Numbered from the stretch's first letter, positions 28,917-48,500 are shown. The stretch is 64,000 bases of DNA from Candidatus Desulfarcum epimagneticum (GCA_900659855.1 CAACVI010000012.1:256532-320531), one strand, 5' to 3'. Numbers and translations: made by a program. Notes: generated from the letters alone by a model not told the origin.

Positions 28917-29067
28917 GATAAACTCGTAAAAAGATTGCGGGACAGCGTCGTAAAAAGTTCGATCTACAAGGCGAAGCGGTTATTTTTGAGCGAGGCAATA
29001 CACTTAGTATGCCTCGCTCAAAAATAACCGCTTTAACGCCGTAGATCGGACTTTTTACGGCGCTGTC
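28917..29067. repeat. Full copy of the palindromic element (with compensatory stem changes)
   Basis: GATAAACTCGTAAAAAGATTGCGGGACAGCGTCGTAAAAAGTTCGATCTACAAGGCGAAGCGGTTATTTTTGAGCGAGGCAATACACTTAGTATGCCTCGCTCAAAAATAACCGCTTTAACGCCGTAGATCGGACTTTTTACGGCGCTGTC. Confidence 0.85.
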
Positions 29068-30280
29068 AGTCTCCGTATTTTCCCACTATGGAGATACTGC
29101 ACACATTCATCATGGGAAATCCCCCCAAATTGTGGGTCAGGCCGAAGCGGGGGTCCTCAAGCTGTCTTTCCCCGGCCTTTCCATGTAGCTGGAGATACAT
29201 CTCGTAAATCATACGGATGCCCGAGGCCCCGATGGGATGGCCGAAGCATTTCAGGCCCCCGTCCACCTGGCACGGCACTCCGCCGCCGTCCAGGTCGAAG
29301 AAGCCGTCCAGCACGTCCTTGACCGCGCCGCCCCGCTCGGAGATGTGCAGATCCTCCATGGTCACCAGCTCGGTGATGGAAAAGCAGTCATGGACCTCCA
29401 TCATGCTCAGCTCTTTTCGGGGATCGGTGATCCCGGCCTCTTTGTAGGCCTTTTTGCTGCACGCCGTGGTGGTCATGAAATGGTCGCCGTCCCACTCGTC
29501 GTAGCCCATTTCCTCGCCGCTGCTCAAGGCCAGCTGAAGGGCCTTGACCGTGACAAAATCCTTTTTGCCCATCTTTTTGGCGATCTCAGGGGTGGTGACG
29601 ATGGCGCAGGCCGACCCGTCGCTGACCCCGCAGCAGTCGTACAGCCCCAGGGGGTGGGCGATGATGGGGCAGGCCAGGATGGTGTCCACGGACACCTCTT
29701 TCCGAAGATGGGCCTTGGGATTTTTCGCGCCGTTGGCGTGGCTCTTCATGGAGATGTGGGCCATGGCCTGTTTGATATCGGCGTCCGGAACCCCGTGTTT
29801 GGCGCTGTAGGCGCTGGCGAGCTGGGCGAACGAGCCCGGCGCCGTGATGTTGGGAAACCACTGCCAGATAAGGCTTCCCGCGTTTGACCCGGTGAAGCTG
29901 GGAAGCCCCCCGAAGCCGGTGTCTTTGAGTTTTTCAACGCCAAGGGCCAGACATATGTCATAGGCCCCGGAAGCCACCGCGTAGCAGGCCCCCCTGAAGG
30001 CCTCGGTGCCTGTGGCGCAAAAATTCTCCACCCGGGTGACCGGGATAAAGGGAAGTCTTAAGGTGGTGGCCAGGGGAATGGCGCTTTTTCCCACGCCCCC
30101 CTCATCGAAACAGGTGCCGAACCACGCCGCCTCGATCTCCTTTTTTTCGATTCCGGCGTCCTGGAGGCATTCCTGGAACGCCTCGACCATGAGTTCCTCG
30201 GCCCCCACATCCCAGCGTTCTCCAAACTGGGTGCAGCCCATTCCAATAATCGCCACTTTGTCTCTTATGCCTGTCGCCAT
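29066..30280 (-). CDS. SCP-x/thiolase-like protein (acetyl-CoA C-acyltransferase family)
   Basis: 404-aa ORF. VAIIGMGCTQFGERW...NFCATGTEAF (active-site Cys region)...HPLGLYDCC...GHPIGASG...NLGG is a non-specific-lipid-transfer-type thiolase pattern. Confidence 0.8.
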   Translation of the reverse strand: MATGIRDKVAIIGMGCTQFGERWDVGAEELMVEAFQECLQDAGIEKKEIEAAWFGTCFDEGGVGKSAIPLATTLRLPFIPVTRVENFCATGTEAFRGACYAVASGAYDICLALGVEKLKDTGFGGLPSFTGSNAGSLIWQWFPNITAPGSFAQLASAYSAKHGVPDADIKQAMAHISMKSHANGAKNPKAHLRKEVSVDTILACPIIAHPLGLYDCCGVSDGSACAIVTTPEIAKKMGKKDFVTVKALQLALSSGEEMGYDEWDGDHFMTTTACSKKAYKEAGITDPRKELSMMEVHDCFSITELVTMEDLHISERGGAVKDVLDGFFDLDGGGVPCQVDGGLKCFGHPIGASGIRMIYEMYLQLHGKAGERQLEDPRFGLTHNLGGFPMMNVCSISIVGKYGD

Positions 30281-30320
30281 AGATTGGATCCTCCTCGTGT
30301 GTATGACGGATATATCAAAT

Positions 30321-32687: not shown

Positions 32688-32707
32688 AGTATTCTCCTTC
32701 TTTCTTT

Positions 32708-32863
32708 GATAAACCCGTAAAAAATGGATCGGACGGCATCGTAAAAATTCCATATGCTAAAATTTAAGCTACAAGGCGTAGTGGTTTTTTGAGAGTGAGG
32801 CCATACATATAGTATGCCGAAGGAACAAAAAACCACTGCGACGCATTTTTCTACGATGTCGTC
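32708..32863. repeat. Variant (type-2) copy of the palindromic element
   Basis: GATAAACCCGTAAAAAATGGATCGGACGGCATCGTAAAAATTCC...CTACAAGGCGTAGTGGTTTTTTGAGAGTGAGGCCATACATATAGTATGCCGAAGGAACAAAAAACCACTGCGACGC...CTACGATGTCGTC. Confidence 0.75.
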
Positions 32864-32889
32864 TTTAAACAGGCTCATTTAAACCCGAT

Positions 32890-35007
32890 TCAGTTCAATT
32901 TGAACAGCTGCTCAATCAGCTGGGATTTCATGATATCGCCCGTGATCTTCAATTTTCCGGACGTATAGGCCTGCATGGCCGGAAGGCTCCCGTTCATCAT
33001 GTCCAGAAAATCCGCGTCCGGCATCTCAAGACAGCAACTCGGGTTGTCGTGGACCCCCGGCGAAATATCAAGGGCCCCGTCCTGGATGTCGCAGATCCAT
33101 TCGCACCCGTCGTTTCCGGTGATATTAAACTGAAACGTCACGGTTTTGCCTTTGGCGGCCTCCTCCATGAACTTGTCCCCCAGGGTCTCAAACACCTCGG
33201 TCACCGAGCCGGCGCCGGCGCCGGACGAGGCGCCGTCCCCTTCGGGTTTTTTCGTGAAGGCGGCCATCACATCGCCCACCTGCTCGCTCACCTGGCCGTA
33301 CTCCACCGCCCCTTTCATGGCGGTGATTTTCCCCCAGGCCCCTTTGAGCGCCTTTGGCCCGGGCGCCTCGGCGCCGTCTCCCACCACGGCCCCCGGTCCT
33401 GTGACCATGGCGGCCCGGTTGAAAAATCCCATGCCCGCGTTGTAAACGCTCCCGGATTCCCCGCAGTCCTCCGAGCACAGGTAAAGGGTCATGGGCGCCA
33501 CAAACTCCGGCTTCATTTTTTCAAACAGATCCGGGGGCAGCACGTCCTCGGTGAGCCGGGACGCCGCCACCGGGGCGATGGCGTTGACCTTGATGTCGTA
33601 TTTCGCGCCCTCCAGCCTCAGCGTGTTCATCAGCCCCACCAGGCCCATCTTGGCCGCCGAATAGTTGGTCTGGCCGAAATTGCCGTACAGACCGGCCGCC
33701 GATGTGGTGAGCACGATCCGGCCGTAGCCCTTTTCTTTCATGACTTTAAAGGCCGGCCGGGTCACGTGGTAGGCGCCGTTTAAATGAACGTCCAGAACCG
33801 CCTCCCAGGTCTCCGGCTCCATCTTGACGAAACTTTTGTCCCGTAAAATGCCGGCGTTGTTGATCACGATATCCACGGTCCCGAAATGGTCCAGGGCGGT
33901 TTTGACGATGTTTTCCCCGCCCTTCGGGTCGGCCACGTTGTCGAAATTGGCCGCGGCCTCTCCTCCCATGTCGCGAATTTCCTGAGCCACCTTTTCGGCC
34001 GGCGACGACGATCCGTCTCCGCTTCCGTCCCGGGCGCCGCCCAGGTCGTTGACCACCACCTTGCACCCGCGCTTTGCCAGCTCCAGGGCGTACACCCGTC
34101 CCAGGCCGGCCCCGGCGCCGGTGACAATGGCCACCCGGCCGTCAAATCGAATCTCGTCCGGCGTCGCGTCCCCGTATTCAAAGGTTCCGTTGGTGATGAT
34201 CTCCTCGCCGGTTTTGGCGTTGACGGTCTTCCACACGCCTTTGCCCTCTTCCGTTTTCCATACCAGGGTCTGGACGGGCTCGCCGGGGTACAGGGTTTTT
34301 GAAAAGCGGCAGTTGAATGTCCTGAGTTTTTCAGGCTCACCGGGCATCAGGCTTTCAATCACGGCCCGGCAGGCGTAGCCGTGGGTGCACAAACCGTGCA
34401 TGATGGGCTTTTCAAACCCCGACATTTTGGCGAATTCGGGGTCCACATGAAGCTGAAAGGTGTCCCCGGTGAGCCGGTAGATGAGGGGCTGATCGGCCGA
34501 CGGCGCGGCGTCCACCACGAAATCCGGCTCTCTTTGGGGAAACTCAAACTCGGATTTCGGGGCCGGGGGGCCGCCGAAATTCCCGTCCAGACGGGAAAAC
34601 ACCGTGATGATGTTGGTGAAAAGCTTCTGGCCGTTTGAATGGCGCGTCTCAAATTCGGCGACGATCAACGCCCCTTTGTCGCCTTTGTCATACATGTGGA
34701 TGACCTTTCCCTCGGTGGAAAGGGTCCCCTGGGGCGGAATGGGATGGTGGAACACCAGCTCCTGCTCGCCGTGCAGAATCCCCGCCAGATTGATATTGAT
34801 CTCCTTTGCGATGGATATGAAAAAATCCATCTCCACCAGAGCCGCGATGGAAAAGCTGGGAACGACCTTGATGTCTTTTTCATAGCAGTACTCCAGATCT
34901 GAAAAACCGGCGCCCACCCCCAAGGCGTAGAGCGCGACATCCTTCCAGTCGTATTCCCGGGTAAACGGCCCGATTTTTTTTCCGATTGCGTCTAAGTTAA
35001 GCGCCAT
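32890..35007 (-). CDS. Multifunctional-enzyme-2-like protein: MaoC/hot-dog hydratase (N+C) + SDR dehydrogenase + SCP2 domain
   Basis: 705-aa ORF. The N-terminal double hot-dog has ...YRLTGDTFQLHVDPEFA. The central SDR has VAIVTGAGAGLG...NNAGILRD...YSAAK. The C-terminal SCP2 has ...FQFNITG...LPAMQAYTSGKLKITGDIMKSQ. Confidence 0.85.
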   Translation of the reverse strand: MALNLDAIGKKIGPFTREYDWKDVALYALGVGAGFSDLEYCYEKDIKVVPSFSIAALVEMDFFISIAKEININLAGILHGEQELVFHHPIPPQGTLSTEGKVIHMYDKGDKGALIVAEFETRHSNGQKLFTNIITVFSRLDGNFGGPPAPKSEFEFPQREPDFVVDAAPSADQPLIYRLTGDTFQLHVDPEFAKMSGFEKPIMHGLCTHGYACRAVIESLMPGEPEKLRTFNCRFSKTLYPGEPVQTLVWKTEEGKGVWKTVNAKTGEEIITNGTFEYGDATPDEIRFDGRVAIVTGAGAGLGRVYALELAKRGCKVVVNDLGGARDGSGDGSSSPAEKVAQEIRDMGGEAAANFDNVADPKGGENIVKTALDHFGTVDIVINNAGILRDKSFVKMEPETWEAVLDVHLNGAYHVTRPAFKVMKEKGYGRIVLTTSAAGLYGNFGQTNYSAAKMGLVGLMNTLRLEGAKYDIKVNAIAPVAASRLTEDVLPPDLFEKMKPEFVAPMTLYLCSEDCGESGSVYNAGMGFFNRAAMVTGPGAVVGDGAEAPGPKALKGAWGKITAMKGAVEYGQVSEQVGDVMAAFTKKPEGDGASSGAGAGSVTEVFETLGDKFMEEAAKGKTVTFQFNITGNDGCEWICDIQDGALDISPGVHDNPSCCLEMPDADFLDMMNGSLPAMQAYTSGKLKITGDIMKSQLIEQLFKLN

Positions 35008-35089
35008 TCAAACCCTCCTTATGTTCCGGATTTTTATTTAAAAAAAATCCCCGCATGAGCGGCGTCATAAAATTTCATATGGTAAAATT

Positions 35090-35199
35090 GATGAACTCGT
35101 AAAAAAGCCGATTTTGGACTGTTTCCAAAATTCAGGTCTAATAATTTCAGTTGTTTATACAGACAAAAAATCTGTTTTTTGATTTTTTACGAGTTTATC
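35090..35199. mobile_element. 110-bp short variant sharing the element TIRs, with 6-bp target duplication
   Basis: GATGAACTCGTAAAAAAG...different internal sequence...TTTTTTACGAGTTTATC. AAAATT lies on both flanks (35084..35089 and 35200..35205). Confidence 0.75.
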
Positions 35200-35206
35200 A
35201 AAATTT

Positions 35207-35356
35207 GATGATCTCGTAAAAAAGCCTGGGATGGCTAAGTTAAAAATTCGATATACAAGGCGCAGCGGTTATTTTTAATTGAGGCAATACATGTAGTATG
35301 CCTCAATTAAAAATAACCGCTGTAACGCAGTAGATCGGATTTTTTACGACGCCATC
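35207..35356. repeat. Full 150-bp copy of the palindromic element (inverted orientation)
   Basis: GATGATCTCGTAAAAAAGCCTGGGATGGCTAAGTTAAAAATTCGATATACAAGGCGCAGCGGTTATTTTTAATTGAGGCAATACATGTAGTATGCCTCAATTAAAAATAACCGCTGTAACGCAGTAGATCGGATTTTTTACGACGCCATC. This is near-identical to the reverse complement of 26321..26470. Confidence 0.85.
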
Positions 35357-36068
35357 AGATGTTGTACTTCCCTGATTCAATGTAGGGAATATCCTCCACG
35401 TCTATGGCATGCGTGATCTCTTTGTTCAATCTCTTTTTCAGCTCCGCGATGATGCCCCTTTTTTTGCCGAGCCCCCGGGCGAACTCAAGGGTTTCGGTCA
35501 TGAGATCATCGATATGACAGGCTTTTCTCACAATATGGGCGCGTTCGCACTCCTCGGCGGTGAGCCGCCTTCCCGTGTACTCCATGTCCTGGAGGACATG
35601 GGCGGGAATGGCTTTTCTTAAAAGCGCGTTCATCCCCGGGAGAAAGGGGATGCCCAGGTCCACTTCCGGGAAGCAGAAAAATCCCCGGTCCGACCTCATG
35701 AACCTGAAGTCAAAGGCGCAGGAAATAATGGCCCCGCCGGCAAAGGCATGGCCGGTGATGGCGGCCACCGTGATCATGGGATACATGGCGACCCTTCTCA
35801 AAACGCCGTTCAAAGAACGGAAAAACGCCTTGGCGGTTTCGATGTCCCCCTTTTGAAGAACCGGGACCAGCCAGTCCAGATCAATGCCGTTTGAAAAAAT
35901 CTTTTCATGGGACGAGCGGACCACAAGGGTCAGCGCGTCGGTCTTTTCCTCAATTTCATCCAGCGCGTCTCCAAACGCCTTCAAAAATTCAGGATTAAAT
36001 CTGTTTTCCCCGTCGTTCAGCGTGGCCAGCGCCACATCGCCGTCCAACTCGTACTCCACCTTTGCCAT
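35355..36068 (-). CDS. Enoyl-CoA hydratase/isomerase (crotonase) family protein
   Basis: ORF 35355..36101; the likely start is Met12 (MAKVEYELDGDVALATLNDGENRFN). The oxyanion-hole region is ITGHAFAGGAIISCAFDFR. Confidence 0.8.
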   Translation of the reverse strand: MAKVEYELDGDVALATLNDGENRFNPEFLKAFGDALDEIEEKTDALTLVVRSSHEKIFSNGIDLDWLVPVLQKGDIETAKAFFRSLNGVLRRVAMYPMITVAAITGHAFAGGAIISCAFDFRFMRSDRGFFCFPEVDLGIPFLPGMNALLRKAIPAHVLQDMEYTGRRLTAEECERAHIVRKACHIDDLMTETLEFARGLGKKRGIIAELKKRLNKEITHAIDVEDIPYIESGKYNI

Positions 36069-36169
36069 GTTTTTGGGCCCCTCCCGTGATAAAAAAAACA
36101 ATCGATTTAAAATAATAATCTCAATTCAACGAATCTGTTATCATTGAACGGGCCCCGGGTCAACCCAAA

Positions 36170-36212
36170 CAAAAAGGGCGAGAGACTTTTTCAAGCCCCT
36201 CGCCCTTTTTTT
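36170..36212 (-). terminator. Bidirectional rho-independent terminator downstream of the selenoprotein gene
   Basis: AGGGCGAG (36175..36182) pairs with CTCGCCCT (36199..36206). It is flanked by an A-run (36170..36174) and a T-run (36206..36212). Confidence 0.65.
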
Positions 36213-36254
36213 CATGCGAATCGGATGGCGGAATCCTTTAAAAGAATCCGTTTG

Positions 36255-36578
36255 TCATGAGCATCCTCCAGCGGATGAGCCGCAGCCCGAGCACCCCTCC
36301 TGTCCGGCTCCCAGGTCCATGCCGCTGGTGAGCTTGAATCCGTAGGGGGAGAAGTCTACCTTGATGGGGGCGGCTTTTTTCATGAATTCTTTGTCCACAA
36401 TATATTTAAAGCCTTCGATCTCATATTCATCGTCCGTTTTTTTGGCCTCATCCAGGGCCAAAGCCAGCGAAGGCCCGCCTCAACCGCCTTCGTTCAAAAA
36501 AATCCTCACGGGAGAAAGCTCTTTTCCCTTGAAATATTCGGCGATCTGAGCGTTCGCCGACTCTGTGACCTCAACCAT
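36255..36578 (-). CDS. HesB/IscA-like selenoprotein (in-frame UGA = Sec at codon 33)
   Basis: ATG at 36578 is preceded by AAGGAGG. Own translation: MVEVTESANAQIAEYFKGKELSPVRIFLNEGG-U-GGPSLALALDEAKKTDDEYEIEGFKYIVDKEF...GCSGCGSSAGGCS. The TGA at 36482..36480 aligns with the first conserved Cys of IscA (GGCSG). The ORF track shows only the part after the TGA (36255..36461). Confidence 0.75.
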
Positions 36579-36711
36579 TTTGTCCTCCTTGAAATAAGCT
36601 TAATTGATTCGCCGCGTCTTTTAAAATCAAAATAACAAAACGCGCGTTTCCATACCCATACATTAGGCGCTCCCGCGGCGGTTGTCAACCCGCGCAAACG
36701 CGCCGGGCGGC

Positions 36712-37248
36712 TCATGGCCGGGAACGGGCCATTTTTTCCAGCCGATTCTGGTAAATCTTAAAATTTTCTTCGGAAAAAAGAACAAACACCGCCCGTTTGA
36801 TCCCCTCTTCCTTCTCCAGAAAATCCCATGTGACGCCTGTGGCGATCCGGCAGGCCTCCTCAAGGGGATAGCCGTAAACCCCGCAGCTCACGGCCGGAAA
36901 GGCGACGCCGGAAAGCCCATGCTCCAGCGCCAGCCCCAGGCTGTTTTTGTAACAAAGCGCCAGCAGCCGGGCGTCTTCCGGGACGCCGCTGTAAACAGGC
37001 CCCACCGTGTGGATGACATGCCGGGCCTTCAGGTTGTGGCCCCCGGTGATCCGGGCCTCGCCTGTGGGGCATCCCCCCAGGGTTCGGCATTCTTCCAAAA
37101 GCCCCGGCCCCGCGGCCCGGTGGATGGCGCCGTCCACGCCCCCGCCCCCCAGGAGAGAGGAGTTGGCCGCGTTGACAATGGCGTCCACATCCATCCGGGT
37201 GATGTCACCCAGCCGCGCCTCCAGTTTTCCGAATTGGATCGGCTCCAT
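36712..37248 (-). CDS. Macro-domain protein (O-acetyl-ADP-ribose deacetylase, YmdB-like)
   Basis: 178-aa ORF. GDITRMDVDAIVNAANSSLLGGGGVDGAIHRAAGPGLLEECR is the canonical macro-domain motif. Confidence 0.85.
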   Translation of the reverse strand: MEPIQFGKLEARLGDITRMDVDAIVNAANSSLLGGGGVDGAIHRAAGPGLLEECRTLGGCPTGEARITGGHNLKARHVIHTVGPVYSGVPEDARLLALCYKNSLGLALEHGLSGVAFPAVSCGVYGYPLEEACRIATGVTWDFLEKEEGIKRAVFVLFSEENFKIYQNRLEKMARSRP

Positions 37249-37401
37249 ATGTCCCTCCCTTAAATCAGGTAGTCTTAATGGATCAATTTAAAAAATTTAT
37301 CAAGAAAAAAAACGCCGCCCGCCCATTTTTTCACCGGTTTTGCCCCGATTTTGGGGGAGCTTCGCCCCCAAACGCCCCGGAGCCTTTGAACGGCCGGCGT
37401 T

Positions 37402-38703
37402 TTAAACGCCCAGAAACGCCCGGATGCGCGCGATGGGCTTTCTAAAAAGCCGCAGGCCCAGAAAAGTCCGGGGGCCTTTGATCCGGGCGGTTCCCCGCTG
37501 TCCGGGGGCCACGCCTTCAGGAGGCTTTTCCCACAGGGCCTCGGCTGTGATCGATGGAATGTTTTCATCGGACAGCGCCACATCAAAACCAATTCGCTCC
37601 ACAGTGGCGCCGATGGCGCGGAAGGGATTGTGGTCCAGCCTCACCGCCGCCGGGTCCCCTTTTCGGACGAGCCCGGAGTCTCCCGCCGGAATCATGATCC
37701 GGACCTTGGTCTTTAAAGGGTCGGCCACCCGAAGAACCAGGCGGCCGGTTTCCACAAACGCCCCGATGAGGGCGTCGGGATCGTCCAGGATCACCGCCCC
37801 GTCGGCCCCGGAGCGCGCGGTGGAAAGGGCCAGGGTCCGGATGATAAAATCCAGCTCGGCCCGCCGGCTTCGGATTTCAATCTTCTGGGCCGGAATTTTA
37901 GACAGCTCCGCCCCGCTCACGTAGGCGGCGCCCTCCAGCCTGGCCAGCTCGGCTTTGGCCGAGGACAGGGCCCGGGCCGCCTCGTCTCTTTTTTTTTCCA
38001 GAGCCCGGATGTCGTAGGAGAACAGGGCGTCGCCCTTTTGAACCGGCTGTCCCGGCCGGACATGCAGTTTTCGGATGATGCCGTCAAAGGGGGCGAAAAC
38101 ATAATGGGGATTGAGGGGGGCCACCCGGGCCGGGGCGCTGATCCGGGACCGGACCGGAATGAGCGTCAAAAGAACAAAGGCCGCCGCCACCGCCGCCGCG
38201 GCCTTTTTGTTTTTGAAAGCCGTTCGCGCCAAAGGCGTTTTCACGCAGGGCGCCAGCAGGGGGGCGGCCAGGGAAAAGGCCTCCAGGGCCGAAGAGGGAT
38301 CGGTGTTCAACACAATCAAAAGGGCGTGGCCCGGTTTCGCGCCTCTTTGAGCCAAAGGCGCCCACAAAAGCGGCCTCGGCTCCAGGGTCCGAAGAAGCCC
38401 GGCGGCGCGGGGCGTCTTTTTTTCATCCAGGTCCCGCCCCCGGATGACCACGGGGCCGGACCGGCCGGCGAATGCTTTCCGGATTTCTTTCACCCCATAG
38501 GCGAACTCGTTGTCCTGGGAGGGTTTGAGCCCCCCGGAGACGGCCCGGACGCGTTTGAGCCCTTTTAAGGAGACCCAAACAACCCGGGAGCCTTCCAGCT
38601 CCTCCGACAGACGGTCTAAAAAAACCCGGACCGGTTTTTCCCCGGGCGGGGACGCGATCATGGACGAGGCGAGTTTAATGATATTCTGGGCGATTTTATT
38701 CAT
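37402..38703 (-). CDS. HlyD-family periplasmic adaptor-like protein
   Basis: 433-aa ORF with one TM (AAAVAAAFVLLTLIP), a lipoyl-like hairpin (APFDGIIRKLHVRPGQPVQKGDALF), a coiled coil, and beta-barrel-like segments. Confidence 0.7.
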   Translation of the reverse strand: MNKIAQNIIKLASSMIASPPGEKPVRVFLDRLSEELEGSRVVWVSLKGLKRVRAVSGGLKPSQDNEFAYGVKEIRKAFAGRSGPVVIRGRDLDEKKTPRAAGLLRTLEPRPLLWAPLAQRGAKPGHALLIVLNTDPSSALEAFSLAAPLLAPCVKTPLARTAFKNKKAAAAVAAAFVLLTLIPVRSRISAPARVAPLNPHYVFAPFDGIIRKLHVRPGQPVQKGDALFSYDIRALEKKRDEAARALSSAKAELARLEGAAYVSGAELSKIPAQKIEIRSRRAELDFIIRTLALSTARSGADGAVILDDPDALIGAFVETGRLVLRVADPLKTKVRIMIPAGDSGLVRKGDPAAVRLDHNPFRAIGATVERIGFDVALSDENIPSITAEALWEKPPEGVAPGQRGTARIKGPRTFLGLRLFRKPIARIRAFLGV

Positions 38704-38707
38704 TTCG

Positions 38708-39493
38708 TTATTTGATTCTTGAAAGGGGCGCCTCGGACCTGACCGGCCCCATACTCAAAACCCCCCTCATGCCGGGAAGCAGGCCGGATTCGGCGGCCTG
38801 CCTGGAATTGGAAACGCGCCAGTATGTTTTGATAGTGCCGCTGCGCGCGTCCACCAAAGGCTCGGACACGCTCAGCTCGGCGGTGATCCGGGCCCCGATG
38901 TCCGGGACAAAAAACACATGGCTCTTCCCCTTTTCAAAGCCCACCGCCAGTTTTGAAGGCAGGCTGGCCGCGAAATAAAGCCGATTCCGGCTGTAAAGCT
39001 CAATGACGGGCCGGCCCGGCTCGACCCACTCAAAGGGGCGGACCAGGCGCCGGACCACCACGCCGTCAAAGGGCGCGTAAAATTTGGACGCTTTGATCCG
39101 GGAATCGATGATCTCGGCCTGGCTTCGATTGGAAATCATCTCAATCCTGGCTTTTTCGATCTCCTCGTTGGACGCGAACCCGGATCGGTTCAGGCCGGAT
39201 ATCTCCTTCACCCGCCTTTTCCAGTAGGCGCTCTGGGCGTCATGGCTCTTTTTTTGGATAATGAGATCCCGGTGAAAGAGCATGGCCAGGAAATCGCCCT
39301 TTTTCACCGTGTCCCCGGCGTCGGCCTCGAAGCGGATCAGCGCCCCCTCCCGGCTGGCCGAGAGAACGGCGTGGTCTTTGGCCTCCACAATGGCCGGAAA
39401 GGTCTCGGCCGCGCAAATCCCGGGCCCGGCCAGACCCCACAGCGCCCAGGCGAAAAAAAGCCGGGCCATCATCCGAAAACGCGCGTTCCTCAT
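38708..39493 (-). CDS. HlyD-family / biotin-lipoyl-like adaptor protein
   Basis: ORF 38708..39580. The likely start is ATG 39493, overlapping the upstream stop as ATGA. Signal peptide MRNARFRMMARLFFAWALWGLAGPGICAA, then ...SREGALIRFEADAGDTVKKGDFLA...APFDGVVVRRLVRP. Confidence 0.7.
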   Translation of the reverse strand: MRNARFRMMARLFFAWALWGLAGPGICAAETFPAIVEAKDHAVLSASREGALIRFEADAGDTVKKGDFLAMLFHRDLIIQKKSHDAQSAYWKRRVKEISGLNRSGFASNEEIEKARIEMISNRSQAEIIDSRIKASKFYAPFDGVVVRRLVRPFEWVEPGRPVIELYSRNRLYFAASLPSKLAVGFEKGKSHVFFVPDIGARITAELSVSEPLVDARSGTIKTYWRVSNSRQAAESGLLPGMRGVLSMGPVRSEAPLSRIK

Positions 39494-41685
39494 ATCATCC
39501 CCTCCCCGGCCAGACCCCGCCACGCCCACCGTAAAAAAGAAGCCAGCGCGCTTTCCCAGAAAGTGACGCGCGCGAAACACGGCCGCCCGTGCCCGACCGC
39601 CGTTGAAAGACCCCCGGATTCGGGAATGCTGAATATCACGGGATAAAACGCTTTCAGGGGCCTGGCCCGGCCGTCGGGCGACGGCGCGGAGGCCATGGGG
39701 CCGCCGGCGAAATCAAACAGGGAAAGGTTGACGAACGAGTCCGCCGGAAAATCCAGGACCCGCTCCAGGCGGCCTTCCAGGGTGGGGGTCTCCATGTCCT
39801 CAAACACGATCCCGGCCCGGGCCCCCCTTCGGCCCTTGAGCTTTTGGCGGGTCCGCTCATCGGCGTACACCCTGGCCTCATGGCCGGATTCGCCGGCCAC
39901 GGTCATCAGAAAGGCGCTCCGGAAAAGATAGGCGCCCGGCCCCAGGGTCTCGTTGACCCGGACCACCCGGCCCCGGATGGGAGAGCCCACCCGAAGCTGG
40001 GAAAGGGCCTCGTCCGCCGTCCGGACAGCGGCGGCGATCCTTTTCGCCTCCTCGGCCAGCCATTTCCGGTATCCTCCCTCGGCGCCCCCGGCTCTCATCG
40101 TCTCCATGACGCTTCGGGTTTTTTCAAAATCGCGCATAAGGCGGTCCCTTTTAAGCTCCAGCGCCCGGCTTTGGATCCGCAAAAGGGTCTCGCCCGGCGC
40201 CACGGCCTTTCCCAGGGCCGGAAGGGGGCCTGTGATCCGCCCCGAATCCGGCGCCGTGATCTCGGCCACGTCCCGAACCATCAAAAAACCGGGAAGCTTC
40301 TGGGTCCGGGGCATGGGAAACGCCGCCAGGGCCAAAACCGCGGCCGCCGCGGCCCCGGATCGCAGAACCTTTTTTTTCTCGCCCCAAAAACGTCTGTTTT
40401 GAATCAGAAAACGAATTTCAAGCGCCAGGGGAAAAAGAACGATCGCGAACGCCTGGGCCAGGGCCAGAAGGGCCCCCAGCGCCTTGAAGACAAAATGATA
40501 AACCGCGACGGAGATGACGGTGAAAATAAACAGGCGGTACGCCAGCGCGAAGGCGCCGAAGGCCGCCAGGAATTTTCGCCGGGGATGAATCTCAGGCTCG
40601 GGGCCCTGCCAGTCCACCAGGACCCGGCGGACATAATAAAGGAAAAAGGCCCTGGACCGGGACCTGAGATTGCTGACGCGAAGATAGTCCATCAGGATAT
40701 AATAGGCGTCAAAGCGCATCAGGGGGTTCAGATTGGTGAAAAGGGAAGAGGCCAGAGAGGCCCCGGAAAAATAAAACATGACGCTTCTAATCGCCCCTTC
40801 GGGGGAAACCGACCAAAAAAACAGGGCCACTCCGGCCGCCGCGAACTCCGTCATGACCCCGGCGGCGGCGATGACGACCCGGTCCCGCCGGGACCTCAAA
40901 CGCCAGGCGTCGGAGACATCGCAGTAAAAAACCGGCATGAAGACCATGAGGGCGACGCCCATGCGCCGGACAAAAAGCCCCCGGCTCTTGGCCGCGAGCG
41001 CGTGGGCCAGCTCGTGCAGAATTTTCACAAAGGACAGGGCCGCCACAAACGCGGCCGCGCCCAAAGGAGTCAGCAGATGGTTGGCCGTGTGGGCGTAAAG
41101 CTCCCAGTCCTGGAAGGCGAAAAGAATTCCCAGGACCCAAAGAACGGCGCACACATATAAAAAGGGGCGGGACCCCAAAGGCGCGGCCCAGGGCAGAAGT
41201 TTTTCGATAAAGGCGTCGGGTCTGGCCAGAGGGATTTTCACAAACAGATACCCGGTCAGGGCTTTTAAAATCCGGCGGCGACGGTTTGTTTTCACGCCCG
41301 CCCCCGCGGGCGACGGGTCTTTTTTTTCCGGGTCGCCGAAATCCGAAGGCAAAAACGCCAGCCTCTCTTTCTGGAGAAGGGAAAGAAATCCCGCGATATC
41401 CGCCGGCGAGGGTTTGAGGGGCGTTTTGGCCATGAGCTTTTCCACGGCCGAGCGGATGTCGGGCTCGGTCATGAGACACACCGAAAAGGCGGCCTCGAAT
41501 TCCCCCAGCTCGAAATAATGCCCCTGGAGCGGGTCTTCCAGAAGCCATGTTTTCGAGCCGTCGTCTCCAGGCGCCCCCCGGCGCAGCTTCAGCTCGGGGC
41601 GAAGCCCCATCCAGGGATGGGGCAGGCTCTTTTCCACGGCCTTGAAAATATCGGTCTGAGAAGGGGGTGTGCGTTTCATCGCCAT
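39490..41685 (-). CDS. M50 (site-2-protease-like) metalloprotease fused to a C-terminal HlyD-like adaptor region
   Basis: ORF 39490..41808; the likely start is ATG 41685 (MAMKRTPP). It carries the HExxH motif HELAHALAAK in a TM helix and a second M50 motif NLNPLMRFDAYYIL. It has multiple TMs, then a lipoyl-like/coiled-coil region (...GETLLRIQSRALELKRDRL...IRGRVVRVNE). Confidence 0.7.
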   Translation of the reverse strand: MAMKRTPPSQTDIFKAVEKSLPHPWMGLRPELKLRRGAPGDDGSKTWLLEDPLQGHYFELGEFEAAFSVCLMTEPDIRSAVEKLMAKTPLKPSPADIAGFLSLLQKERLAFLPSDFGDPEKKDPSPAGAGVKTNRRRRILKALTGYLFVKIPLARPDAFIEKLLPWAAPLGSRPFLYVCAVLWVLGILFAFQDWELYAHTANHLLTPLGAAAFVAALSFVKILHELAHALAAKSRGLFVRRMGVALMVFMPVFYCDVSDAWRLRSRRDRVVIAAAGVMTEFAAAGVALFFWSVSPEGAIRSVMFYFSGASLASSLFTNLNPLMRFDAYYILMDYLRVSNLRSRSRAFFLYYVRRVLVDWQGPEPEIHPRRKFLAAFGAFALAYRLFIFTVISVAVYHFVFKALGALLALAQAFAIVLFPLALEIRFLIQNRRFWGEKKKVLRSGAAAAAVLALAAFPMPRTQKLPGFLMVRDVAEITAPDSGRITGPLPALGKAVAPGETLLRIQSRALELKRDRLMRDFEKTRSVMETMRAGGAEGGYRKWLAEEAKRIAAAVRTADEALSQLRVGSPIRGRVVRVNETLGPGAYLFRSAFLMTVAGESGHEARVYADERTRQKLKGRRGARAGIVFEDMETPTLEGRLERVLDFPADSFVNLSLFDFAGGPMASAPSPDGRARPLKAFYPVIFSIPESGGLSTAVGHGRPCFARVTFWESALASFLRWAWRGLAGEGMI

Positions 41686-41859
41686 TGACGTAACACGCCC
41701 TTTTTTTTTTTGCCATTTCAAAACGCCCGGGCCGGAAAGAAAGCAAAAACCCTGTTGACCTTTGGGCGCATTTATGTTTATTTTTTCAAATAATTTTGAA
41801 ATTTTCACCTAATTTTTTATTCACAGCCGTTCGCATAATAAATAAGGGGGGCGCCCGCC

Positions 41860-44800
41860 ATGACATTCGGGGCAAACCGGACGCGCCTGAAAAACCGGGC
41901 GGTTTTTTGGGTTCTGATCCTGTCATCCGCAGCTCTTTTTTCCACTCATTTTTTTGCCGGCCGAAAAGACGCCGGCGCCGCTGAAAACGCCGGGGCCGAA
42001 GCGTTTGAGTACTACCGGGAACACGTGGCCCCCATCCTGTCCTCCACCTGCTCGGCCAGGGACGAGAACGGGGCTTTTATCTGCCACGGAACCCCGGACC
42101 TGGCGTCCGAGACGGCCAAAAAGGACCCGGGGGACTACCATTCGGCGCCGTATTCCCAGTCCGAATACTGCCAGACCTGCCACCGGGGCATCAAAAGAAA
42201 ATTCATCTTCGGGCTTGATCCCAGGGGCGAAATCTCCACCGACGCCCAGTTCCTGTTGTCTTACCAGCAGGCGAAAAAACGGGCGCTGCATCTGAAAATT
42301 CCCTTTGCCAAAATCCTTCGCATGCCCCTGGCGGCCCAGGGCGGGGGGTTCGGCCAGTACCACGCCGGGGGGGAAATTTTTGAAAGCCTTTCCAGCGCCG
42401 ATCACCAAAAACTGTCCGAATGGGTCCGGCTGGAGAATGAAAGCGCCCGGGAAAGCGAAAAGAGCGTGGGCGAGGCCGAGCGGTTCTTCGGCGAACAGGT
42501 CCTGCCGGTTTACGCCCGGAACGGGTGCATGAGCCCCAACTGCCACATTTTCAACCACAGCAGTTTTTTCCCGTCTCCCGGAATGGATGTGGACGATCTG
42601 TCCACGCCTCTGGCCGACCGGTTTTCCGCCGAGCAAAGAAGCTTCAACCGCATGACCTCCAAGGGGCTGATCCAGAGCAATGTGTACCTCACCGGCGACG
42701 TGGAGCAGAGCCGAATACTGAAAAAAAACATTCCCATTGAAAAGGGCGGCGTGATTCAGCGCGGCGGCAACAACCAGTTTTTTTCCGGCCCCGACGACCC
42801 CGACTACCAGATCATGAAAAAATGGCTGGAGCTGGAGCGCAAAGAGGTCATTTCCCGTCTGCGAATCGCCGGGAAACCGGTGGACCCCTCACAGGTGGGC
42901 AAAGTCCGGGGAATCGTGTTTGTCAGAACCGATGTGAAAAACCACCGCCGGTACCTGGACGTGGGCAAATACATGCCCGGCGGCGACCTGTTTTTGCTCA
43001 AACTCAAAGACGGGGAGACGCTTGAAAGCGCCCGGGGCGAGCCCGTCAACCTCACCGCCCGGTTTCACCCGGGAAAAAAGGCCGACATCCGGGAGCCCGA
43101 CGTCCGCTACGACGCCGGGGCCGTGATTTTCTCCATGAGAATCGGGGAACAGGACCGCCTGAACGTGTATGAAATCCGGCTGGATGAAAACCTCGACTAT
43201 GTCGAGGGAAGCTTCCGGCGCCTCACCCACGGCCCCGATCTCGTCAACGGAATCAAGGTCCATTACACGGACCCCACCTATGTGCCGGACAGCGCCGACA
43301 AAGCGGCCCTGATCGGGGGTCATAACCTGGACAAAGCCGACATCGTGTTCGCCTCCAATTTAAACGGAGGCGTGGTCCAGAGCGTGGAGCGCGGAATCGT
43401 GGGAGAGGCCGACGGCGGAACCCGGAACGTGATTTTTGATTTCGACCGCCCGGAGACCGACGGCTCCTTTGAGGGAAAACGCATCTATATCGTGGACGGG
43501 GCCAACAAGGGCCAGTGGCGGACCATCGCCCGGTTTCAAAACCGCCTCTTCACCCCTGAAAAACGCTCCTATATCACGGTGGACCGGCCCTTCCCGAACC
43601 CTGTGGACCACTCCGTCATCTATGTGATCGAGCGGGACCCCGAAACCCAGCCGGGATTTCTGCCCTCCTACTCCATGTACGGGATGAAGTATCCCAAACC
43701 CGGGGAGGAAAAGGCCCTGTATGACAAAACCATCTCCCGGATCACCTACGGAATCGCCCAGGAGCTGGATTTGAGCGTCCGCACCACCGGCGAGGTGTTT
43801 TATTCGGGCCAGCGCTCTTTCACGGACAAGTATGAGCGCCCCATCTTTCACATGACCAGCTGCCGCCGGCATCTCGACACCCGGTTCAGCTTCCCCACCC
43901 ATCATGGGAACCGGTCCCAGGTTCTGGTGTACGCCGACAACCACGAGCTTCCCAGCGGCATCGACATCCACGTGGGTCTGGACCCGGACAACCTGTGGGA
44001 GGCGGGGAACTTAAGCGTGTCCGACCACCAGATGGGACCCGGCCTGGAGGCCCGAAACCCCCACGATTTTTCCACCGGCTTCTTTGACGAAGACGGCTTT
44101 CCCATTGTGGACGGCCCGAAAATCATCAACACACGGTTCAATTTCAAGAACGGGAAACAGCCCTCCCACACCCGCTTTGTTTTCAAAAAAATGGCCCTGT
44201 TCCCCTTGAGGGGGCCCCGGGCCGTCTCCAGAACCGGTTTTTCCCCGGGCGGGGCGTTCAAGGACTCCGTTCCCCTGCCCGACGGCGACATCCTGGTCTC
44301 CCACTCGCCCGCCCCCATCAACCATCTGGACCCCGGGGCCGCCCCCGACTTCGACCTTTATATCGTCAGGCCGGACCCCAGCTTTCACACGCCGGGAGGA
44401 AAGGGCGTTCCCAAAGTGAGGAAAATTCGCCTCTCCGCCGCCTCGGCCGCGGGCCTCTCCGATGTCCAGGCCTACCCGGTTTACGTCCGGATGAAGCCCA
44501 AAATCAACGCGGCCAGACGCGCCAGGCGGGACCATCTCATCCGGCCCCCGGAAATGCCGGACAACGACCACAGGCCCGCCATCTATCTGGAGCGGAACTA
44601 CCTTTTAATCGACGCCATCATGGACGATCCTTCTCCGGTGGGCAAAAACGTGGCTTACGCCACCAATCCCCTGACGGGGAAAAAGACCGCGCCTGAAGAC
44701 GAGGTGAAATACGTGAGGATGGTGGAGGTTCTGCCGGTCCATCCCGACGACGCGGCCCCTGTGGCCTCGGGGCTCATCGCAAACCGGGACCCCGAAAGCA

Positions 44801-45576
44801 CGCTGATCAGCAACGGCATTCATTTGAAAAAACGCATCGTGTGCGAAGTTCCCCTGGAGGCGGACGGCTCCGTGTACATCAAGGTCCCGTCCAAGACCCC
44901 CATGTCCATCCAGAGCTTAAACAAAGACAAAATGGCCCTTCGCCAGTCGGCCCGGCTCTACTTCTTCGCGCCCGGGGAGAAATTCACCATATCGCCCTCC
45001 CCCAGCGAAACCTTTCAAACCTGCGGCGCCTGCATGGGCTCCATGTCTAAAAGCCCCGAAAAACTCTTCGGCCCGACGAACATGTTCTCCGGCCAGGAAA
45101 AGGTCCGGGCCATCGCCCTGGCCAAGGGCGAGCCTCAAGAATACGGAATCGATCCCGACGACCGGATCTCCATTGATTTCGTCCGGAACATCCAGCCCAT
45201 TTTCGATAAAAACTGCGCGGCGTGCCACTCCGGGGAAAATCCCCCGGCCGGGCTTTCCCTTTCCGGTGAAAAAACGACCTATTATAACGCGGCCTACGAA
45301 AATCTCATGGAGCTGGAAGACCCCCAAAGCGGCTGGCATTCCCGGAAGAAGTACGTGAATGAGCGCGGCGCGCTGGCCATTGAAAGCTATCTCATGGAAA
45401 AAATCCTCGGCCGGGAGCTGAAAGCCCGCCGGGACCTGTCCGGAGATTTTCCCCATCCGGGCAAACGCCTGATGAAAAAACGCAAAGTCAACGTCCCGCC
45501 GCTGACCCGGGGCGAAAAAATGACACTGGTCAGATGGATCGACATGGGCGCGGTTTACAGGGGGGTGAGGGAATGA
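41860..45576 (+). CDS. Large secreted multi-domain protein with three PSCyt-like modules and haem c motifs (possible HzsA-related architecture)
   Basis: 1238-aa ORF with a signal/anchor (AVFWVLILSSAALFSTHFFAG). Canonical CxxCH occurs at CQTCH and CAACH. Non-canonical spacings are C-x4-CH (CMSPNCH) and C-x10-CH (CSARDENGAFICH), each preceded by an F..V.P.. context as in the planctomycetal cytochrome domain. The C-terminus has ...LVRWIDMGA. The long middle region looks beta-rich. Confidence 0.6.
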   Translation: MTFGANRTRLKNRAVFWVLILSSAALFSTHFFAGRKDAGAAENAGAEAFEYYREHVAPILSSTCSARDENGAFICHGTPDLASETAKKDPGDYHSAPYSQSEYCQTCHRGIKRKFIFGLDPRGEISTDAQFLLSYQQAKKRALHLKIPFAKILRMPLAAQGGGFGQYHAGGEIFESLSSADHQKLSEWVRLENESARESEKSVGEAERFFGEQVLPVYARNGCMSPNCHIFNHSSFFPSPGMDVDDLSTPLADRFSAEQRSFNRMTSKGLIQSNVYLTGDVEQSRILKKNIPIEKGGVIQRGGNNQFFSGPDDPDYQIMKKWLELERKEVISRLRIAGKPVDPSQVGKVRGIVFVRTDVKNHRRYLDVGKYMPGGDLFLLKLKDGETLESARGEPVNLTARFHPGKKADIREPDVRYDAGAVIFSMRIGEQDRLNVYEIRLDENLDYVEGSFRRLTHGPDLVNGIKVHYTDPTYVPDSADKAALIGGHNLDKADIVFASNLNGGVVQSVERGIVGEADGGTRNVIFDFDRPETDGSFEGKRIYIVDGANKGQWRTIARFQNRLFTPEKRSYITVDRPFPNPVDHSVIYVIERDPETQPGFLPSYSMYGMKYPKPGEEKALYDKTISRITYGIAQELDLSVRTTGEVFYSGQRSFTDKYERPIFHMTSCRRHLDTRFSFPTHHGNRSQVLVYADNHELPSGIDIHVGLDPDNLWEAGNLSVSDHQMGPGLEARNPHDFSTGFFDEDGFPIVDGPKIINTRFNFKNGKQPSHTRFVFKKMALFPLRGPRAVSRTGFSPGGAFKDSVPLPDGDILVSHSPAPINHLDPGAAPDFDLYIVRPDPSFHTPGGKGVPKVRKIRLSAASAAGLSDVQAYPVYVRMKPKINAARRARRDHLIRPPEMPDNDHRPAIYLERNYLLIDAIMDDPSPVGKNVAYATNPLTGKKTAPEDEVKYVRMVEVLPVHPDDAAPVASGLIANRDPESTLISNGIHLKKRIVCEVPLEADGSVYIKVPSKTPMSIQSLNKDKMALRQSARLYFFAPGEKFTISPSPSETFQTCGACMGSMSKSPEKLFGPTNMFSGQEKVRAIALAKGEPQEYGIDPDDRISIDFVRNIQPIFDKNCAACHSGENPPAGLSLSGEKTTYYNAAYENLMELEDPQSGWHSRKKYVNERGALAIESYLMEKILGRELKARRDLSGDFPHPGKRLMKKRKVNVPPLTRGEKMTLVRWIDMGAVYRGVRE

Positions 45577-48500
45577 TGAACACACACACACGCAAATCGA
45601 ATCGGACCAGGGCCTTTTTGCCGGCGCTTCTTTTCCTGGCGGCCCTCTTTGTCTTTCATCCGGGCGAGCGCCCCCGCGCGGCCGGCCCCGGTGCCGCCGG
45701 AGTCTCCAACCCCTCCGTATACGGGATTTTAACCAGCGACCGGTGGGCCTTCGGCGCCTCCTATGAGCGGCGGGACCTGGAGCCGGTGAAAAACAACAAT
45801 CCCTACCCCGAGCCCCAGCCCGAACGGGACCATCCCAAGGCCATGGAGATCACTCCGGACGGCAAAAAACTCTACATCGCCCTGGCCGGAAACGAGGCCG
45901 AGCCGGGAAACCAGGTGGCGGTGTTTGACGTGGAGAAAAAAACAGTCGTCAAAAAAATCAGGGTGGGCTCAAGCCCCTGGCACATCGCCATGCATCCCAA
46001 GGGAAGATTCGCCGTGGTCATCAACCGGCTCTCCAATTACGCCTCGGTCATCGACACGGCCCTGGACGAGCCGGCCGGGGAAATCCCCCTGGACTTTTAC
46101 TGCCAGTATATGGTGTTCAACAAAAAAGGGACCCGGGCCTATGTGAGCAACCGCTACCTGGGCCAGGCGCTGGTCCTGGATGTCAAAGCCGGACGGGATC
46201 GCTTCAAGGCCCGGATGCAAACCCTGGGGGGCTTTGATTTGAAAACCTTTGAAAAAAAGGTTTTTCCGGCTTTAACAAAATCCTGCGGCGCCGCGGCCTG
46301 CCACGGCGTGTCCCGGGGGGACTTTTACGCGGGGGAAAATGTGTTAAAGGCCTTTTTTTCCGCCATTGAAAATTCCACTCCCGGCGACCCCGACGACAGC
46401 CTTCTGCTCAAAGCCGTCCGGCCCCGGGCCGAAGGGGGATTCGCCGACGATCTGTCCGGGGCCAACTTCCACGCCGGAGGAAAGGTCGCATGGTCCAAAA
46501 AGGATCGCGGATACAAAAAAACCGCCCGGTGGATCTCCGAAGCCTCCGAAGGCCCGGGGATTCCCGTGGGGAACTTCGGCTCCAAGCCCTTCAGCCTTCA
46601 GCTCAGCCATGACGAAAAATACCTGTACGTCGGCAACCTGGGGACCCAGGACATCTCCATCATTGATCTGAAACAAAAAAAAGAGGCGGGCGGGATTTAC
46701 ACCCAGAACGTGGTTCTGGACCTGGCTCTTTTTCATGACAAAAAAACCGACAAAGAGATGCTTTTCGCCCTTTCCATGGGGCTGGGTTTCGGCGCGGCCC
46801 GGGAAAGGGACCCCTTTGGGGGCGAGACCGAGGACGCGCGAAATCCGGCGGCCCAGTTCAGCGTCCGCCGGGACATCGACACCACAGAGCCCCTTCCTGT
46901 CCATCAGCAGAAAATATTGGGGGCATTCGACGCCATCGACGGCACGGCGGCCTTTAAAATGGCGGACATTCAAAACGATGTCATCGCCATTGACGCCGGG
47001 GCGCTGAAAATTCCCAAAAAAATCCCCTCGCCGCGCCTGGACTATGTGTTAAAGGCCAACCGGTACGAGGCCCACAGGGCCTGGACCCGGTACACGTCGG
47101 ATTCCGCCGAGGTTCTGCCCCAGGAGCCCAGCGGGGACATCCCGCCGGAGCTTCAGCGGGTCATCGGCGCCTTCCCGGAGGCGGCCAGAGTCTGCGGCGA
47201 CCGTCTCTACACCGTGATGCTGGGCTCTTATGAGCTGGTGGAATGGAAAATCAACCCCTCGGCCGCCGAGCCCTCGGACTGCCTGGAGCCCGTGGCCGTC
47301 TATCCCACCGGGATCATGCCCCGGGAAGTGGTCTGCGGGCCGGCCGAAACCGTCGCGGAAGGCCTTCTTTTTGTGAGCAATTTCCTCGGGGAGACCGTGA
47401 GTGTCATTGACCGGAAGTCCGGCGAATCCAAAGAACACGTCGTGGGAAACCTGTCCCGGCCTTTCCCGGACAGCAACGCGGAGCGGGGCCAGATGTTTGT
47501 CAACACCGCCGTTTTCTCCGTGGACGGGGACACCTCTTGCATGTCCTGCCATATTTACGACACCAGCGACGCCCGGGGATGGGGCGCCGGACAGGCCATC
47601 GCCCAGACGCGGGACGGCAAATTCGTCAACGGCGGGTCCCTGGCCATTCCCCAGATCAAAAATCTCTTCGCCACCCAGCCCTTTTATTTCGAGGGCACCC
47701 ACACCTGCTTCGACGCCCAGTTCGACGACGCCCGCGAGCATGTGGCCCTTCAGGGGTTTCTGGAGCCCAACCCCCAGGGCGACTTCACCGGGGTGTCCCA
47801 CCCGGTCCCGCCGGGCCAAAGGCCCGAAGAGCATGAGGAGATCCAGGACAAAATGTCCACGGACTCCTTTGGCGACCTCTACTTTGATTTAAGGGAGCGC
47901 CGGGATGAGTTCATACGCCGGGCCTCCATGAAATATTTTGGAAAGGCGTTCAACTTCCGGGATTTCCAGCGCTTTATCGGGGAATTCCAGGCCGCCGAAA
48001 CCCGGCTTCTGCCCAATCCCCACGACCCGGCCAACCCGTCCGTGGCGCGGGGAAAACGCCTCTTCAACCGGTTGGACACCGGCTGCGTGACGTGCCACAG
48101 GCCCCCGGAATTCACCAACAAAACCGAAACTCTTTCCAACAACCATGAGCGGGTCCTTCCCTCCATCATCAGCTTCACCCGAAGGGAAAAGGCCTTCACC
48201 CTGGTGGGGCCCCACTGGATGGACTCCGTCAACGGATACAAGCGGGACCTGGAATACTGGGAAAAGGGCCGGGTGGAGAGACAGGAGGGCCATATGACCG
48301 TCTTTCCCTTAAGGGGCCTGTTTGACCGCCCCTTCGCCTTTCTGCACCACGGCCGGGCCCGGTCCGTCCGGGAGGTCATCGCCTCCCCGGACCATTACGC
48401 GCTGAGAAAATTCAAGTATCCCCCGCTGAGGGGAGGAGAAGAAATCCGGGAGGACCGCCGGGAGCGGGGATTCAATGAGCTGAGCTTTATCGAGGAGCGG

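Follow-up and report, generated by a model that had tools for sequence, protein, structure and literature searches.

The window analysed here, a stretch of 64,000 nucleotides from Candidatus Desulfarcum epimagneticum, carries on its minus strand a coding sequence of the IscA/HesB family (36255..36578), which opens with an ATG at 36578 and, with the TGA at 36482..36480 lying in frame, does not end until a terminal TGA at 36257..36255, a frame of 107 codons with a predicted product of 107 residues including a putative selenocysteine (Sec) at position 33. The joined frame translates as MVEVTESANAQIAEYFKGKELSPVRIFLNEGG*GGPSLALALDEAKK...GCSGCGSSAGGCS*, or more fully as MVEVTESANAQIAEYFKGKELSPVRIFLNEGG*GGPSLALALDEAKKTDDEYEIEGFKYIVDKEFMKKAAPIKVDFSPYGFKLTSGMDLGAGQEGCSGCGSSAGGCS*, the first asterisk being the in-frame TGA. 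The in-frame TGA lies in a GG-U-GGP motif, and a C-terminal motif, C96-S-G-C99 ... C106 (36261..36293, minus strand), located by family alignment, is presumed to provide the partner ligands of Sec33. A Shine-Dalgarno sequence, AAGGAGG, can be read directly on the minus strand at 36584..36590, 5 bases before the ATG. The first-pass annotation had remarked that the ORF track is limited to 36255..36461, and had followed the frame upstream through the TGA to the ATG and its AAGGAGG; both observations hold, with a 68-residue ORF starting at TTG the only entry in the mechanical ORF list at the locus, and the coordinates and sequence of the longer frame matching throughout.

The gene is flanked on the same strand by a Macro-domain O-acetyl-ADP-ribose deacetylase upstream (36712..37248, minus strand; NF001664, 220.9 bits against a cutoff of 200) and a crotonase/enoyl-CoA hydratase family protein downstream (35355..36101, minus strand; NCBIfam matches, all below equivalog cutoffs), with a terminator-like hairpin of 18 pairs and a T run found 45 nt past the stop codon (36171..36210, minus strand) as a consensus match only in a pattern scan. 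The adjacent same-strand gene is a Macro-domain homologue on the upstream side in 29 related loci and a crotonase-family homologue on the downstream side in 18, a conserved synteny that supports orthology and says nothing on function. The neighbourhood analysis found no isc, suf, other Fe-S-assembly or selenium genes adjacent to the locus.

Further afield, the crotonase-family gene belongs to a beta-oxidation-like cluster (29066-36101, minus strand), which includes a thiolase (NF004810, 700 bits) and some unusual fusions, namely an 810-residue HMG-CoA-synthase-like and SDR protein and a 705-residue SDR-containing protein. On the other side, the region 37402-41808 (minus strand) encodes a 772-residue protein with an HExxH intramembrane metalloprotease region and an HlyD/RND-adaptor-like region, whose match to a daptide-type model (157 bits) falls below the cutoff of 300, followed by two more adaptor-like genes of 290 and 433 residues; judged from these sequences, the region may form a peptide maturation and export module. 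Two adjacent very large ORFs of 1238 and 1018 residues with signal-peptide-like N-termini lie at 41860-48590 on the plus strand, with precomputed Pfam matches on an identical contig to HZS_alpha for the former and, faintly, to a Lactonase beta-propeller for the latter. An anaerobic carbon-monoxide dehydrogenase catalytic subunit is encoded at 52607-54577 on the minus strand (TIGR01702, 589 bits against a cutoff of 478), and a 359-residue protein with a ferredoxin-like 4Fe-4S domain at 59412-60491. Four different transposases lie within ~11 kb (12328-13260, 13903-15150, 17070-18239, and 22127-23407), their families being REP-associated tyrosine transposase-like, IS630, IS4, and IS481, and many small ORFs of toxin-antitoxin size occur between 500 and 27000, which suggests an IS-rich genome in flux.

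An 11,111-nt contig of run ERR2856278 is 100% identical to window positions 35351..46461, with the Logan gene calls on this contig giving a 32-residue and a 68-residue ORF at the locus, and the protein database lists the 68-residue piece as ‘conserved hypothetical protein [Candidatus Desulfarcum epimagneticum]’. As this C-terminal piece is the only part named in the public database, the selenoprotein has been missed by annotation. Taken at face value, these records describe two independent small genes, encoding a 32-residue peptide and a 68-residue protein translated from the TTG at 36461, a reading that we consider the least probable of those weighed here, and extremely improbable in itself, in view of the homology of the joined frame. 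Neither fragment alone gives a Pfam match, whereas the joined sequence matches PF01521 (Fe-S_biosyn) as a single sequence with 22.1 bits and E = 1.8e-4, below the gathering threshold of 26.3, and PF01521 matches are precomputed for many close homologues. With Cys put in place of the TGA-encoded residue, as in all of our profile tests of the joined protein, the joined sequence scores 113.2 bits against a cutoff of 85 (E = 5.9e-33) with the NCBIfam model NF038090 (IscA_HesB_Se), with residues 1–97 aligned to profile positions 1–100 of 101. Furthermore, 65 homologues run continuously across the junction with a Cys.

The two features that mark NF038090, a TGA (Sec) at codon 33 in GG-x-GGP and a conserved C-terminal Cys triad, are both found in the joined frame, and its UGGP corresponds to the UxGP motif given for the HesB-like family (PMC13188914, Table 1). 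The model TIGR01911 (HesB_rel_seleno) gives only 27.9 bits against a cutoff of 66.35 over residues 2–67, which places the protein in a sister subfamily whose Cys-rich C-terminus is different, and the equivalog models all fall far below their cutoffs (IscA, TIGR02011, 28.8 against 150.6 bits; SufA, TIGR01997, 28.9 against 136.2; ErpA, NF010147, 21.7 against 117). On these profile scores, the predicted protein is a member of NF038090, and lies outside TIGR01911 and the IscA, SufA, and ErpA equivalogs. A protein search returned 258 homologous clusters, and a profile built from 28 family members matches solved A-type carriers, with AQ_1857 (1nwb) at E = 2.7e-10 and E. coli IscA (1s98) at E = 7e-5, as well as E. 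coli IscA 1r94 and SufA 2d2a. The IscA/HesB identity proposed for the joined ORF in the first-pass annotation is thereby upheld, by the NF038090 score and by the profile match to solved IscA homologues. In these carriers the first cluster-ligand Cys, which is Cys35 in E. coli IscA (1s98) and has its counterpart in Aquifex AQ_1857 (1nwb), is aligned with position 33 of the window protein. C96, C99, and C106 are invariant in the 28-sequence alignment, and the first two of them align with the E. coli IscA C-G-C (Cys99/Cys101) once a one-residue insertion is allowed for.

The assignment of the UGA to the first conserved cluster-ligand Cys, likewise made at first pass, is confirmed by this alignment and by the alternation of TGA with TGC or TGT among relatives. 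A scan of genomes, one for each species, gave 80 loci, all from Desulfobacterales or other Thermodesulfobacteriota, one of which was unmatched by the motif; in the 79 closest relatives read, codon 33 is TGA in 74, TGC in 4, and GGC in 1. Of 68 metagenomic relatives, 47 carry TGA and 21 TGT or TGC, the scan having returned mostly TGA forms even though it was seeded with Cys forms. The best 120 of the 258 protein clusters divide at position 33 into 65 with Cys, 53 with ‘W’, and 1 with Leu, the one remaining entry being the truncated 68-residue piece. Alignment with Cys-containing homologues, proposed earlier as a check on the gene, finds TGC or TGT at the same codon together with the 65 Cys-form protein clusters, so that the locus presents an in-frame UGA aligned with the Cys of its homologues, as expected of a bacterial selenoprotein gene. 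Two exceptions in the relatives are TTA (Leu) in the copy at 601-915 of L164 (protein entry P0018) and GGC (Gly) in L079 at 3097; an intact SECIS-type hairpin persists in the TTA copy, which may thus reflect a single-base mutation or a sequencing error, or else be a copy that has been inactivated.

The ‘W’ called at this site in 53 of the best 120 homologous entries might be taken to favour selenium-free read-through of the TGA, whether by near-cognate Cys or Trp insertion, by a suppressor tRNA or by a code in which TGA is sense, with a Cys or Trp product. In some systems, misinsertion of Cys at Sec codons is possible under selenium limitation. Both ‘W’ entries that were checked on DNA (P0002 and P0022; codon 429-431 of L162 and codon 583-585 of L163), however, carry TGA at this codon, and in P0022 a genuine TGA stop is likewise read as Trp (tail ‘WVSTS’), with the 53 ‘W’ entries appearing to be TGA translated by a TGA=Trp code on short contigs. 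Additionally, a Trp would hardly be expected where the ligand Cys is invariant, and TGA terminates many well-supported full-length genes in the window, among them the thiolase (29066-30280) and MurJ (55708-57273), both with end-to-end profile matches, so that the code is the standard one. Together with the confinement of hairpin conservation to TGA forms described below, these observations leave selenium-free decoding very improbable, if marginally less so than two small genes.

Conservation on the two sides of the TGA also bears on the two-gene reading. The ATG lies exactly 32 codons before the TGA in all 122 TGA-form genes, the gene of the window included, with the frame likewise invariant, and a Shine-Dalgarno match precedes the conserved ATG in 123 of the 123 TGA-form homologues checked (52 with GGAGG and 71 with four-base cores). 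No Shine-Dalgarno sequence was found before the internal TTG at 36461, which sits within the hairpin. In a comparison of the window with 121 homologues, in which synonymous differences are near saturation (pS ~0.8), pN/pS is 0.19 over codons 1–32 and 0.23 over codons 34–84, which indicates that both sides of the TGA are coding and under equal purifying selection. Two separate short ORFs are thus effectively refuted, with the upstream half conserved as protein and its ATG at a fixed spacing, and the alternation at codon 33, the ATG spacing, pN/pS, the Shine-Dalgarno sequences and the TGA stops together effectively rule out both this and a reassigned code. The same comparative results show the TGA to be ancestral and not a recent nonsense mutation.

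Downstream of the TGA, the predicted SECIS hairpin occupies 36441..36462 on the minus strand, with its apical loop, U29 G30 G31 A32 U33, at 36454..36450 (the U of the UGA is counted as +1, such that the window coordinate is 36483 minus the position). Folding with RNAfold gives the pairs U21-A42, U22-A41, U23-A40, G24-C39, G25-C38, C26-G37, C27-G36, and, above a bulged A35, C28-G34, at -10.3 kcal/mol, or -9.3 kcal/mol for the isolated hairpin, with the UUUGGCC/GGCCAAA stem beginning 17 nt after the UGA and a UGA-to-loop spacing of 25 nt. The candidate hairpin of the first-pass annotation (36462..36441) was right in its placement and is a family-conserved element, but its 8-nt loop, CUGGAUGA, breaks the rule on the position of G; in the refined fold the extra C28-G34 pair and bulged A35 close a 5-nt UGGAU loop with G at the second position. 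Bacterial SECIS (bSECIS) elements are described as having a loop of 3–9 nt, an upper stem of 4–16 bp, a spacing of 16–37 nt and a minimum free energy of -7.5 kcal/mol or lower, with a G within the first two loop positions that is usually followed by G or U (PMC13188914, Fig. 2A). When tested against these published constraints, as a bSECISearch-type check suggested at the outset would do, the window hairpin falls within every one of them (8 bp with one bulge, loop UGGAU, spacing 25 nt, -9.3 kcal/mol), given a filter that allows one single-nucleotide bulge, a filter without bulges rejecting it.

A hairpin of this kind after a TGA is not in itself distinctive. Hairpins conforming to the bSECIS constraints follow 4.2% of the 2296 TGA trinucleotides of the window, and 104 TGA-bridged ORF pairs occur in it (at least 25 + 25 residues, and at least 100 in total), so that the bare pattern is common and the case must rest on comparative evidence. 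Rfam was searched over the whole window at gathering thresholds and over 36200-36700 at E values of 10 or less; neither a SECIS nor any other credible family emerged, the only matches being chance ones to microRNAs and snoRNAs. The fold of the 61-nt region shows no unusual stability (z = -0.74), and the sliding energy profile is undistinctive because the upstream Gly-rich codons are GC-rich. The comparative evidence, that is the family score, the TGA/Cys alternation, the invariant ATG spacing and selection, lifts the locus far above chance. A scan for further TGA-bridged selenoprotein genes in the window gave no credible one, with the other candidates being off-frame overlaps or adjacent separate genes.

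Across the family, the consensus hairpin consists of the pairs G24-C38, G25-C37, C26-G36, U27-A35, and C28-G34 around the loop U29-G30-G31-A32-U33, with the same 5-bp stem and UGGAU loop independently predicted by RNAalifold, and 92% of cells paired compared with 18–56% in slid-partner controls. In 101 unique TGA forms, third-position entropy falls to 0.08 bits at +27, 0.00 at +30, 0.40 at +33 and 0.08 at +36, +27 being the four-fold degenerate third position of an Ala codon and +30 the third position of a Leu codon, whereas flanking third positions (+9 to +21, +45, and +48) carry 1.5–1.95 bits in the TGA forms. Among the Cys forms, a small control set of 20 unique sequences that is less diverse than the TGA set, entropy relaxes to 0.92 bits at +27 and 0.75 at +30, and the hairpin is lost in 15 of the 20. 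The five that keep a full SECIS-type hairpin (L087, L089, L093, L096, and L105, of the metagenome loci L082–L161) are consistent with recent Sec-to-Cys conversions, a remnant SECIS-like structure having been described in a Cys-form HesB-like gene of Desulfitobacterium hafniense (PMC1794560, Fig. 4b). Covariation is weak, with one compensatory pair (G-C to A-U), as the stem is nearly invariant, and neither covariation statistics nor pair counts exceed shuffle controls; it is thus conservation at synonymous sites on which the RNA evidence rests. Such freezing of the synonymous sites of the hairpin, confined to TGA forms, is the hallmark of SelB-dependent recoding rather than of leaky read-through.

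The hairpin of the window departs from this consensus in its register. C at +27 and G at +37 are found in the window only, among 75 TGA forms (the 74 genomic loci and the window), and the hairpin also carries U22 and C39, two of these four substitutions altering residues (M40L and P45A). Imposing the consensus register on the window sequence leaves two mismatches, and, when +37 or +39 is reverted singly, the fold collapses and its energy weakens to -5.8 and -4.0 kcal/mol respectively, whilst reversion of all four restores the consensus hairpin at -10.0 kcal/mol, from which it follows that the four changes are interdependent. A SECIS element rebuilt in a new register at equal stability implies selection on the hairpin within the lineage of the window.

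This last point bears on whether the gene is a relic in a lineage that has lost Sec decoding, a young and as yet undecayed pseudogene in which the UGA would end the product at 32 residues. Sec machinery is not seen within the 64-kb window, with ARAGORN finding no tRNA genes there, and hence no tRNA-Sec, and NCBIfam annotation of 29 large ORFs finding no SelA, SelB, or SelD. The window also holds several transposases, as in an IS-rich and probably host-associated bacterium, and its richness in IS elements would fit a genome in flux in a host-associated organism, where traits can be lost; losses of selenoproteins and of the Sec trait are frequent in bacteria, the HesB-like family included (PMC1794560, Tables 1 and 4). 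Against a relic stand an ORF that is intact on both sides of the TGA, with its Shine-Dalgarno sequence, ATG, three invariant Cys and normal stop, the rebuilding of the SECIS element by four interdependent substitutions, and low pN/pS in both halves, although the last is averaged over the whole path to the relatives and is compatible with a very recent loss. We therefore judge a relic unlikely, though the least unlikely of the three alternatives. From the ancestral TGA, the intact ORF, and a SECIS element rebuilt at equal stability, we infer that the organism decodes Sec; our literature search returned nothing on selenocysteine in Candidatus Desulfarcum, and nothing on NF038090.

The locus very probably encodes a single 107-residue A-type carrier of NF038090 in which Sec, inserted under the direction of the SECIS hairpin, replaces the first of three conserved ligand cysteines. 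Translation would begin at the ATG at 36578, and at the UGA (36482..36480) SelB with Sec-tRNA(Sec) would bind the hairpin 25 nt downstream through its UGGAU loop, allowing Sec to be inserted in place of termination and the ribosome to carry on as far as the terminal TGA (36257..36255). Sec33, Cys96, and Cys99, perhaps joined by Cys106, would presumably hold iron or an Fe-S cluster in the mature protein. The binding of SelB, insertion of Sec in the organism and the ligand role of Sec33 are proposed by analogy with bacterial Sec decoding and with what is known of IscA.

Since a curated model for this selenoprotein family exists already, the result is an annotation fix and not a discovery. Restoring the 107-residue selenoprotein corrects the record of the 68-residue ‘conserved hypothetical protein’ and makes it probable that the organism uses Sec, and the spurious Trp at the Sec site in ~44% of the best database homologues (53/120) can mislead alignments and active-site inference. 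With Sec dominant over Cys in the clade and a tightly conserved SECIS element lying over a conserved peptide motif, the family would serve well as a model of how Sec acts as a metal ligand and of joint constraint on RNA and protein, neither being new in kind. Mildly interesting beyond annotation are the dominance of Sec over Cys in the clade, the locking of the SECIS element in the M-A-L-D-E codons, and the register shift of the window. A more tentative suggestion, which we regard as possible but doubtful, is that Sec is the strongly preferred first ligand in the Desulfobacterales clade (74/79), and that a SECIS element locked in a protein motif (M-A-L-D-E-P) has slid its register. If true, the preference for Sec would mean that a selenolate ligand brings a genuine functional benefit in iron or Fe-S handling, and a SECIS element inside conserved M-A-L-D-E-P codons could still evolve, by way of four coupled substitutions with M40L and P45A among them.

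HesB-like selenoproteins have been in print since at least 2005–2006 (PMC1794560, PMC1976440, PMC1088965; reviewed in PMC13188914), from deltaproteobacteria, including the symbiont of a gutless worm, and from Sargasso Sea data (PMC1794560, PMC1976440, PMC1088965), in agreement with the earlier statement that such proteins are known from deltaproteobacteria and marine metagenomes (PMC1794560, PMC1088965, PMC1976440). The protein of the window shares with this published family a Sec at the first conserved Cys of the HesB/IscA domain, in U-x-G-P (here U-G-G-P), a host of the same type, anaerobic deltaproteobacteria that include a symbiont (PMC1976440), and hairpins that remain after Sec-to-Cys conversion (PMC1794560, Fig. 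4b), comparable to those kept in 5 of the 20 Cys forms here. It resembles NF038090 in length class (~103–108 residues), in GG-[U/C]-GGP and a C-terminal C-x-x-C ... C, and in its distribution among Desulfobacterales/Thermodesulfobacteriota; nothing essential differs, the copy in the window being set apart by its lineage-specific SECIS register, M40L, and P45A. From TIGR01911 it is separated by its score (27.9 bits, cutoff 66.35) and by its own different, Cys-rich C-terminus. Homology to IscA, SufA, and ErpA (1s98, 1r94, 2d2a, and 1nwb) is nearly full-length with corresponding ligand positions; in contrast to these carriers, the first ligand of the window protein would be Sec, the C-terminus has C-x-x-C and a further Cys in place of C-x-C, and the gene lies outside any isc or suf operon.

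The hairpin likewise agrees with the bSECIS model, whose prototype is E. coli fdhF, in lying immediately downstream of the UGA within the coding sequence, in a 5-nt loop whose second and third positions are both G, and in an 8-bp stem, spacing, and energy within the published ranges. Its primary sequence is unrelated to that of the fdhF SECIS, with no Rfam model matched, and it differs from the consensus of its own family in its bulged A, directly beneath the pair that closes the loop, and in a one-base shift of register. By analogy with these systems, the locus would work in the same way as other bacterial selenoprotein genes with an intragenic SECIS element.
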